Source: Naegleria gruberi (lineage: Eukaryota). Taken from it: a stretch of DNA of 1,105 nucleotides. Below are positions 1 to 1,011 of this stretch, piece by piece. Where the stretch lies: the NCBI GenBank assembly GCA_000004985.1, contig GG739557.1. One strand, written 5' to 3'. Below the pieces are notes generated by a model. That model saw only the letters and a program-made list of their open reading frames with translations. It had not been told where the DNA came from and searched no databases. The translations under genes were made by a program, and so were the position numbers. Positions within the stretch are counted from its first letter, which is position 1. Every line of letters begins with the position of its first letter.

Positions 1-662
1 ATAACAACGTCAATTAGTTCCAATTTTTTCAAATTTGGATATTCTAAATTAGCAACAACTGGTTTCCTAATTTTGAACATACGTCCATACGTTTTAGGAC
101 CATCAATTGTCAAGGAAACAAGCTGTGCTTTAATTGAATGATCACCTGTTTTTGCATTATTAAATTCATTTTCAATTTTCAATTCTACTAAATTAGGTAA
201 TGACAATTTGCTATTCATTAATTCATGACAAATTGAATTATCAGATAATTTAGATCTTCTGATATCAAGAGATTTTAAATTTGAAAATTGATTAATAATA
301 AACCGCAATTCATCAATAGGAACAACACATTTTAAATATTGTAAACTTGTTCTTAAATTTTCAACAATTTCCAATGTTGCTTGAGAAACTGGGTTTTCAC
401 CAAATTCCAATTTATCTACAAGTAGCTGCTGCCGATCAATTTCAAATAATGCATTATTAATAAATGTTGATGATTTTGCACCTTTAAATTCAACATTAAA
501 TTTCGTTTTGGTGAGCGATAGAAACTTCCACTTTTTACAAACGATAGAAAGTGTTAGGAGGCGGAATTTTGAATGGAGGAAGGAAAATATTTCTAACAAC
601 ATTTCTGTTGGTAATTGATCAGTTAAATCGTGGCTGTGATGACACGATGTAAGAATTGACAT
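1..662 (-). CDS. F-box/LRR-repeat protein (FBXL-like), 5' partial: N-terminus in window, C-terminus beyond left edge
   Basis: Minus-strand frame with ATG at plus 660-662 (context AAAAAAATGTCA), in-frame TAA at plus 678-680 six codons upstream. 220 sense codons with no stop down to position 3, in ~70% AT DNA where random frames close quickly. Translation: MSILTSCHHSHDLTDQLPTEMLLEIFSFLHSKFRLLTLSIVCKKWKFLSLTKTKFNVEFKGAKSSTFINNALFEIDRQQLLVDKLEFGENPVSQATLEIVENLRTSLQYLKCVVPIDELRFIINQFSNLKSLDIRRSKLSDNSICHELMNSKLSLPNLVELKIENEFNNAKTGDHSIKAQLVSLTIDGPKTYGRMFKIRKPVVANLEYPNLKKLELIDVV... Residues ~17-48 match the F-box consensus LPxEILxxIFsxLxxxdLxxlxxVCKrWrxL. Downstream segments FSNLKSLDIRRSKLSDNSI, LSLPNLVELKIEN and YPNLKKLELIDVV fit the LxxLxLxxxxLxD LRR pattern. 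The supplied ORF track missed it because there is no stop codon inside the window. Confidence 0.85.
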   Translation of the reverse strand, partial: MSILTSCHHSHDLTDQLPTEMLLEIFSFLHSKFRLLTLSIVCKKWKFLSLTKTKFNVEFKGAKSSTFINNALFEIDRQQLLVDKLEFGENPVSQATLEIVENLRTSLQYLKCVVPIDELRFIINQFSNLKSLDIRRSKLSDNSICHELMNSKLSLPNLVELKIENEFNNAKTGDHSIKAQLVSLTIDGPKTYGRMFKIRKPVVANLEYPNLKKLELIDVV

Positions 663-693
663 TTTTTTAAGTGGCGTTTAATGTTCGATTTAG

Positions 694-705
694 GAAATCG
701 ATTTC
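694..705. promoter_or_regulatory. 12-bp perfect palindrome GAAATCGATTTC in the 5' leader or promoter of the F-box gene, with an extra half-site TCGATTT at 685-691
   Basis: Plus 694-705 gaaatcgatttc is its own reverse complement. It is centred ~38 nt upstream of the ATG at 660-662. A 13-bp-spaced repeat of TCGATTT (685-691 and 698-704) gives 1.5 copies of the half-site. This is the geometry of a dimeric DNA-binding-protein site, but no factor is identified. Confidence 0.25.
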
Positions 706-764
706 ATAAGAAGAACAGAAAATGAAGGAGTAAATGATTGCAATCTTCCCAAGATTTACTGTTG

Positions 765-770
765 TTTATA
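765..770 (-). promoter_or_regulatory. TATAAA box ~105 nt upstream of the F-box gene ATG (eukaryotic reading)
   Basis: Minus strand reads CACTTATAAACAAC (reverse complement of plus 761-772). The distance to the ATG fits a Pol II TATA element in compact AT-rich eukaryotic genomes. It is a single hexamer in AT-rich DNA, so support is weak. Confidence 0.2.
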
Positions 771-883
771 AGTGACTGGCAAAAGTCTTTCTCTTTATAC
801 CAAGAATATTGGAGCTTGATGCAGAGACTGAGGTTGTGCTTGGAGTTGGTTCTTTCTTCTTTTCAGCTGATTGCTGCATTCAT

Positions 884-895
884 TCTCTGCAGAGA
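884..895. repeat. 12-bp perfect palindrome TCTCTGCAGAGA inside a moderately GC-enriched spacer segment
   Basis: Plus 884-895 tctctgcagaga equals its reverse complement, flanked by AGATCT (893-898) and with CAGCTG at 865-870. It lies within 811-910, which is ~45% GC against ~30% in the adjacent coding sequence. Confidence 0.3.
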
Positions 896-912
896 TCTGT
901 TCGAGTCTTAGT

Positions 913-931
913 AAAAATTGGCGCAACAAAA
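913..931 (-). terminator. Oligo-T tract 3' of the tRNA (T4 at +8..+11, T5 at +23..+27 on the tRNA strand). RNA polymerase III terminator-like
   Basis: tRNA-strand sequence after G73: ATAATTATTTTGTTGCGCCAATTTTTAC. T4 corresponds to plus 928-931 (aaaa) and T5 to plus 913-917 (aaaaa). There is no convincing GC hairpin before the T-runs (only a 3-bp TTG/CAA stem), so this looks more like a Pol III terminator than a rho-independent one. Confidence 0.35.
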
Positions 932-938
932 TAATTAT

Positions 939-1011
939 CTCCCCCTGGTGGGCTCGAACCACCGACCTGCAGATTAACAGTCTGACGCTCTACCGACTGA
1001 GCTAAGGGGGA
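939..1011 (-). tRNA. tRNA-Asn (anticodon GUU), 73 nt, CCA not encoded
   Basis: Reverse complement of 939-1011 is TCCCCCT-TA-GCTC-AGTCGGTA-GAGC-G-TCAGA-CTGTTAA-TCTGC-AGGTC-GGTGG-TTCGAGC-CCACC-AGGGGGA-G. Acceptor stem 7/7 bp (U1-A72). D-stem GCTC/GAGC with G18G19 in the D-loop. Anticodon loop CU-GUU-AA has U33, anticodon GTT and A37. 5-nt variable loop. T-arm GGTGG/TTCGAGC/CCACC. Discriminator G73. A-box-like TAGCTCAGTCGG and B-box-like GGTTCGAGCCC are present. One non-canonical pair U27.C43 in the anticodon stem. Body resembles Lys(UUU)/Asn-type tRNAs. Confidence 0.9.

Follow-up and report, generated by a model that had tools for sequence, protein, structure and literature searches.

The stretch of DNA analyzed here (the window; 1105 bases, GC content 33%) carries on its minus strand a tRNA gene and, downstream of it, the 5' part of a protein-coding gene that leaves the window at the left edge (Table 1). 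The open frame begins at an ATG at positions 662-660 and continues to the left edge without a stop codon, where bases 1 and 2 form a partial codon. Judged against the 450-aa reference protein described below, the 3' half of the gene, approximately 230 codons, lies past the edge. An in-frame TAA is located six codons 5' of the ATG, and none of the intervening codons is an alternative start; therefore, the ATG at 662-660 is the only possible start codon in the copy of the gene carried by the window. Its context reads AAAAAAATG, as quoted in the preliminary description of this DNA.

Table 1. Positions of the features in the 1105-base window and the evidence for each.
Feature	Position	Strand	Evidence
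5' part of F-box/LRR protein gene, 220 codons	1..662	(-)	Translation, shuffles, BLASTP
Start of LRR solenoid, residues ~79-220	3..428	(-)	AlphaFold model of the reference protein, Foldseek, phmmer alignment to SKP2
F-box domain, residues 15-49	516..620	(-)	PF12937 and PF00646 above cut-offs; alignments to FBXL17 and SKP2
Spacer, 276 nt, from tRNA gene to ATG of F-box gene	663..938	(-)	Sequence; small ORFs only
T-runs 3' of tRNA gene	913..931	(-)	Read from the minus strand
tRNA-Asn(GTT) gene, no encoded CCA	939..1011	(-)	ARAGORN; Rfam tRNA (67.9 bits, E = 2e-14); cloverleaf fold

The remaining five frames of the window are interrupted by stop codons every few dozen codons. The stop-free run observed in the open frame spans 225 codons, that is, the 220 codons from the ATG and five sense codons 5' of it. 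Mononucleotide shuffling of the window (2000 replicates) gave longest stop-free runs of 71 codons on average and 170 at most, and no replicate (0/2000) reached 220 codons; the probability of 220 open codons calculated from the local composition was approximately 6e-9. The GC contents at the first, second and third codon positions of the frame were 0.39, 0.29 and 0.20, respectively, the pattern of coding sequence in an AT-rich genome. The preliminary description had reported a frame of 220 codons running off the left edge, and both the translation and the shuffles confirmed it.

The tRNA-Asn gene is a neighbor of the F-box gene on the same strand and is not functionally part of it. A run of TTTT occurs at positions 931-928, corresponding to +8 to +11 from the 3' end of the tRNA, and a run of TTTTT at 917-913 (+22 to +26). 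Eukaryotic RNA polymerase III terminates at T-runs, and the two runs look like terminators of this polymerase and may function as such. A tRNA gene without an encoded CCA that is followed by T-runs is the arrangement expected of a nuclear Pol III gene. The 68-nt core of the tRNA had no exact copy in any of 185,579 bacterial and archaeal species genomes and none in IMG/VR. Besides the tRNA, no further Rfam family was found in the window; a match of Plastid-ycf2 (5'UTR) to positions 938-1011 of the plus strand, antisense to the tRNA gene, scored 19.4 bits against a gathering threshold of 65.7 (E = 0.49) and was rejected as a chance match.

The spacer between the two genes presumably holds the promoter and the 5' UTR of the F-box gene. 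Within it, we identified no conserved element, no Rfam match and no significant repeats; the direct, inverted and tandem repeats of the window as a whole were short and AT-rich only. Among the complete ORFs of the window, the longest (positions 880-1104 of the minus strand; 74 aa, with an ATG start) passes through the tRNA gene; it is spurious, a by-product of mechanical ORF calling. It is probably the only complete ORF listed in the supplied ORF track, which the preliminary description had already dismissed as an artefact, and its course across the tRNA-Asn gene bears that judgment out.

We compared the predicted protein exhaustively by phmmer with 1.84 billion (1.84e9) representative proteins at E <= 1e-3. 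The best match (E = 1.2e-130) was a 450-aa protein of Naegleria gruberi, NAEGRDRAFT_53605 (EFC37601.1; XP_002670345.1; UniProt D2VZW6), which is encoded on a 245-kb scaffold (245,038 bp) and is named "hypothetical protein" by NCBI/RefSeq and "F-box domain-containing protein" by UniProt. BLASTP of the 220-aa fragment, which had been suggested as a check in the preliminary description, aligned residues 9-220 of the window protein with residues 14-225 of this reference protein, with 210 of 212 positions identical and no gaps. The ungapped match indicates that the part of the gene within the window contains no intron. A word-index search with the 220-aa fragment returned no match, even though the 99%-identical protein is present in the same collection, and its outcome is not evidence of absence; the same search with the reference protein as the query returned the reference protein only.

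The window copy and the reference copy have the F-box at the same place, and in both the LRR solenoid comes next. Across the aligned region they differ by two replacements, I41 and V113 in the numbering of the window protein, both of which are leucine in the reference. Their first residues also differ, reading MSILTSCH in the window and MKIYKKMSDLLMF in the reference; this N-terminal difference consists of substitutions and a one-residue indel (SILTSCH versus SDLLMF), located just before the sequence HSHDL. Because the first eight residues and two of the 212 later ones differ, the window does not represent the reference allele, and it could represent a recent paralogue. Sequence comparison thus makes it nearly certain that the window gene is a copy of NAEGRDRAFT_53605, and it is best read as coming from another strain or haplotype or as a recent paralogue. 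In the reference, the gene model begins (MKIYKKM...) where the window has its stop codon, six codons 5' of the window ATG (region 639-680). Since the window has a stop at the reference start, the shared methionine (M1 of the window protein, M7 of the reference) is a usable start in both copies. It may therefore correct the reference gene model, which is possibly too long, by six codons.

RefSeq and UniProt already list the gene as a prediction, and its UniProt name includes the F-box. The preliminary description had called it unannotated; this is true of the supplied ORF track, but the gene is annotated as XP_002670345.1 and D2VZW6. In our literature search, the locus tag was not mentioned and no study of the NAEGRDRAFT_53605 gene was found. 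The window is nuclear DNA of N. gruberi (Eukaryota, Discoba, Heterolobosea), or comes from a strain or haplotype that is extremely similar to the reference strain NEG-M. The genome of N. gruberi NEG-M is reported to comprise 40.9 Mb with a GC content of 35% (PMC9928731), and that of the window is close to this value. Of the two hosts considered in the preliminary description, the eukaryotic one holds, the closest protein being from the N. gruberi nuclear genome, and the AT-rich bacterium without Shine-Dalgarno sequences can be set aside.

The F-box was recognized by hmmscan with both of the Pfam models that had been proposed for this comparison. F-box-like (PF12937) scored 36.8 bits (cut-off 24.3, E = 3.3e-9) and F-box (PF00646) scored 31.0 bits (cut-off 20.5, E = 2.1e-7), each covering residues 15-49. 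Both models also matched the full-length reference protein, in which F-box-like scored 38.1 bits. The peptide LPTEMLLEIFSFLHSKFRLLTLSIVCKKWKFL, in which the likeness had originally been noticed, occupies residues 17-48 exactly as described, and the window F-box retains the consensus positions LP, E, L/I, IF, L, VCKKW and L. The earlier assignment of a near-consensus F-box at the N-terminus is therefore supported by two profiles past their curated thresholds.

When the window protein was compared by phmmer with all PDB chain sequences, the top matches were FBXL17 (E = 0.0097) and SKP2 (E = 0.014). The F-box positions common to the window protein, FBXL17 and SKP2 are LP, E, LL, IFS, L, S, VCK, W and L, and the alignment with SKP2 is colinear over residues 15-158. 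The AlphaFold model of the reference protein places helices at residues 24-37 and 48-56, where the pLDDT is below 50 because the underlying alignment is shallow (five sequences). Confidence is low in the F-box part of the model (pLDDT below 50 at reference residues 1-22, 24-26 and 31-81), so that the three-helix fold and the Skp1-binding interface, for which the preliminary description had proposed a structural prediction, are putative.

Downstream of the F-box, the model of the reference protein (AlphaFold2; mean pLDDT 59.6, pTM 0.59, built on the same five-sequence alignment) forms approximately 13 units of alternating strand and helix from residue 84 to residue 411. The pLDDT in this region ranges from 54 to 87 (10-residue blocks, reference residues 81-410), with one dip to 47 at residues 171-180. 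The repeats of the solenoid are irregular, 22-30 residues in length, with beta-strands on LxL motifs. Six of the strands fall within the part encoded in the window, at residues 79-82, 109-112, 131-134, 160-164, 183-187 and 213-217 (window numbering, obtained by subtracting 5 from the reference numbering). Comparison of the model with the PDB by Foldseek gave 58 matches at E <= 1e-3, and all 50 of the 50 matches listed were LRR solenoids. Among the matches listed were internalin, ribonuclease inhibitor and NLRP LRRs, as well as FBXL17-SKP1 (6wcq_B, 6w66_B) and SKP2 (7z8t_F, 8byl_B).

The profile evidence for the repeats depends on how much of the protein is considered. In the fragment, the sole LRR profile match by hmmscan against Pfam was LRR_4 at 10.9 bits, under its cut-off of 27, whereas the 99%-identical full-length reference protein passes LRR_Zer-1 (PF25013) with 33.6 bits (cut-off 27). 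The LRR-like repeats reported in the preliminary description to follow the F-box, and the profile search that it had proposed for them, thus find weak support in the fragment, where no model reached its threshold, and are supported by the full-length protein and its model. LRR_Zer-1, the model and the Foldseek matches together place LRRs C-terminal to the F-box, as in FBXL proteins. With moderate confidence, the LRR fold is predicted to follow the F-box directly and to extend as a solenoid to approximately residue 410 of the 450-aa protein.

Relatives of the window protein are few. At E <= 1e-3, only four proteins were found among the 1.84e9 representatives, three from N. gruberi and one F-box/LRR protein from a beetle. 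The N. gruberi paralogue NAEGRDRAFT_80870 (136 aa) shares the F-box and the first repeats with the window protein at 34% identity, and its gene model is short. A second paralogue, NAEGRDRAFT_52708 (963 aa), shares the LRR region at 37% identity, including the block LKSLDI...LMNSK.SLPNLV; its model is without an F-box and contains a PI3Ka accessory domain (PF00613, 50.2 bits). Over its N-terminal approximately 430 residues, NAEGRDRAFT_52708 corresponds as a paralogue to the LRR part of the window protein, and the PI3Ka domain comes after these residues. Either this domain order is genuine, which would make it an unusual LRR-PI3K-like architecture, or the gene model has been fused or truncated. 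No orthologue from N. fowleri, N. lovaniensis or any other Naegleria was detected among the 1.84 billion representatives, and in these comparisons the family appears to be either species-restricted or very fast-evolving.

In the SCF paradigm represented by SKP2 and FBXL17, the F-box binds Skp1, Skp1 forms the bridge to Cul1-Rbx1, and the substrate to be ubiquitinated is captured by the LRR surface. By analogy, the F-box of the window protein would dock on Skp1, which would bridge it to Cul1-Rbx1, and the concave face of the LRR solenoid would bind a substrate. The bound substrate would then be polyubiquitinated, and the protein would act as an FBXL-type substrate receptor of an SCF E3 ligase. 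SCF complexes are generally conserved across eukaryotes, and on this ground the presence of Skp1 and Cul1 in N. gruberi is assumed; our literature search found no statement on Skp1, cullin or other SCF components of Naegleria. The preliminary description had equated the combination of an F-box and LRRs with the receptor architecture of SCF ligases (FBXL). The architecture itself is present in the full-length, 99%-identical protein, and the SCF function that the architecture suggests is probable. Taken as a whole, the window very likely carries an N. gruberi copy of a gene for a lineage-restricted F-box/LRR protein, probably a substrate receptor of the SCF type.

We weighed this reading against three others. 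That the frame might be a chance ORF in AT-rich DNA, with a coincidental likeness to an F-box, has nothing in its favor besides the absence of annotation from the supplied track. Not one of the shuffles produced a frame of this length, the probability calculated from composition is minute, both Pfam models exceeded their curated cut-offs at E-values of 3e-9 and 2e-7, and a protein predicted independently matches the frame at 99% identity. The Pfam F-box matches, the BLASTP result and the shuffle test together refute this explanation, and we assign it practically no weight. A different origin, in which the window would be prokaryotic or viral DNA and its gene a mimic of host F-box proteins from an amoeba-associated bacterium or a giant virus, deserves more discussion. 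F-box mimics are well documented and common in amoeba-associated microbes, and the candidates include effectors of the Legionella AnkB/LegU1/LicA type, the F-box/LRR expansions of amoeba-associated Chlamydiae and Amoebophilus, and the F-box proteins of Mimiviridae. Papers found in our literature search dealt with Legionella effectors and with gene exchange in amoebae. The AT-rich sequence, for which no Shine-Dalgarno sequence need be required, and the prokaryote-style appearance of the ORF track are also compatible with such an origin. However, the closest protein is encoded on a 245-kb nuclear scaffold of N. gruberi, and all four matches of the exhaustive search were eukaryotic, with none from bacteria or viruses. 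A tblastn search with the frame found no match in 50,697 phage records or 72,556 plasmid records, no related loci were confirmed in IMG/VR or in JGI metagenome contigs, and the NCBIfam search of the window protein gave no match. Exact counterparts of the tRNA core are likewise absent from the prokaryotic species genomes searched and from IMG/VR. With relatives absent from the bacterial, plasmid, phage and viral collections searched, we rejected assignment to the bacterial-effector or viral F-box class, and a microbial origin of the window is extremely improbable.

The third alternative accepts a real F-box/LRR gene and questions its role. The gene might have arisen by recent duplication and be silent or in decay, or its product might bind Skp1 without a cullin, or bind neither of them; some F-box proteins work outside SCF complexes. 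Several observations are compatible with this possibility: the family is lineage-restricted and fast-diverging, with only four proteins at E <= 1e-3, three of them from N. gruberi and one from a beetle; the N-termini of the two copies differ by substitutions and a one-residue indel; the models of the paralogues look truncated or fused (NAEGRDRAFT_80870 with its 136 aa, and NAEGRDRAFT_52708 without an F-box and joined to PI3Ka); and expression of the window gene is a prediction. On the other hand, the frame is intact over its 220 codons with only two replacements in 212 residues relative to the reference copy, all of the F-box consensus positions are kept, and the GC contents of the codon positions bear a coding signature. 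We therefore consider a role outside SCF complexes, or no role, unlikely, and retain the SCF-type substrate receptor as the preferred reading.

As a copy of a gene already predicted in RefSeq and UniProt, the window frame is of little importance in itself, and the F-box/LRR gene is ordinary. The locus does illustrate a weakness of prokaryote-style ORF tracks: where a gene extends past the end of a short eukaryotic contig, such a track overlooks it and lists instead an artefact ORF spanning a tRNA gene. A more far-reaching idea is that a small, fast-evolving family of F-box/LRR receptors restricted to N. gruberi tags non-self proteins of intracellular bacteria or giant viruses for ubiquitination through a variable LRR surface. 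The lineage restriction and the divergence of the N-terminus and of the paralogues are compatible with it, but we found no positive evidence for this here and regard it as a very long shot; if true, it would represent LRR-based cell-autonomous immunity in a heterolobosean.

Among known systems, the microbial mimics (Legionella AnkB/LegU1, the F-box/LRR proteins of Chlamydiae, and those of Mimiviridae) have in common with the window protein the combination of an F-box with a repeat domain and the setting in an amoeba. The window gene differs from them in that it lies in eukaryotic nuclear DNA beside a tRNA gene of the nuclear type. The metazoan FBXL proteins SKP2 (FBXL1) and FBXL17 are closer in design, with an N-terminal F-box that carries the Skp1-binding consensus and leads directly into an LRR solenoid, as in the window protein. 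However, the sequence likeness to SKP2 and FBXL17 is marginal (E of approximately 0.01) and lies mainly in the F-box. Orthology to a named FBXL (SKP2, FBXL2-21) was not found, as none of these was among the four proteins recovered at E <= 1e-3 from the 1.84e9 representatives. The repeats also set the window protein apart: FBXLs typically have cysteine-containing repeats of the LRR_6 type, whereas those of the window protein are irregular, and the Pfam LRR model that fits them best is Zer-1-like.
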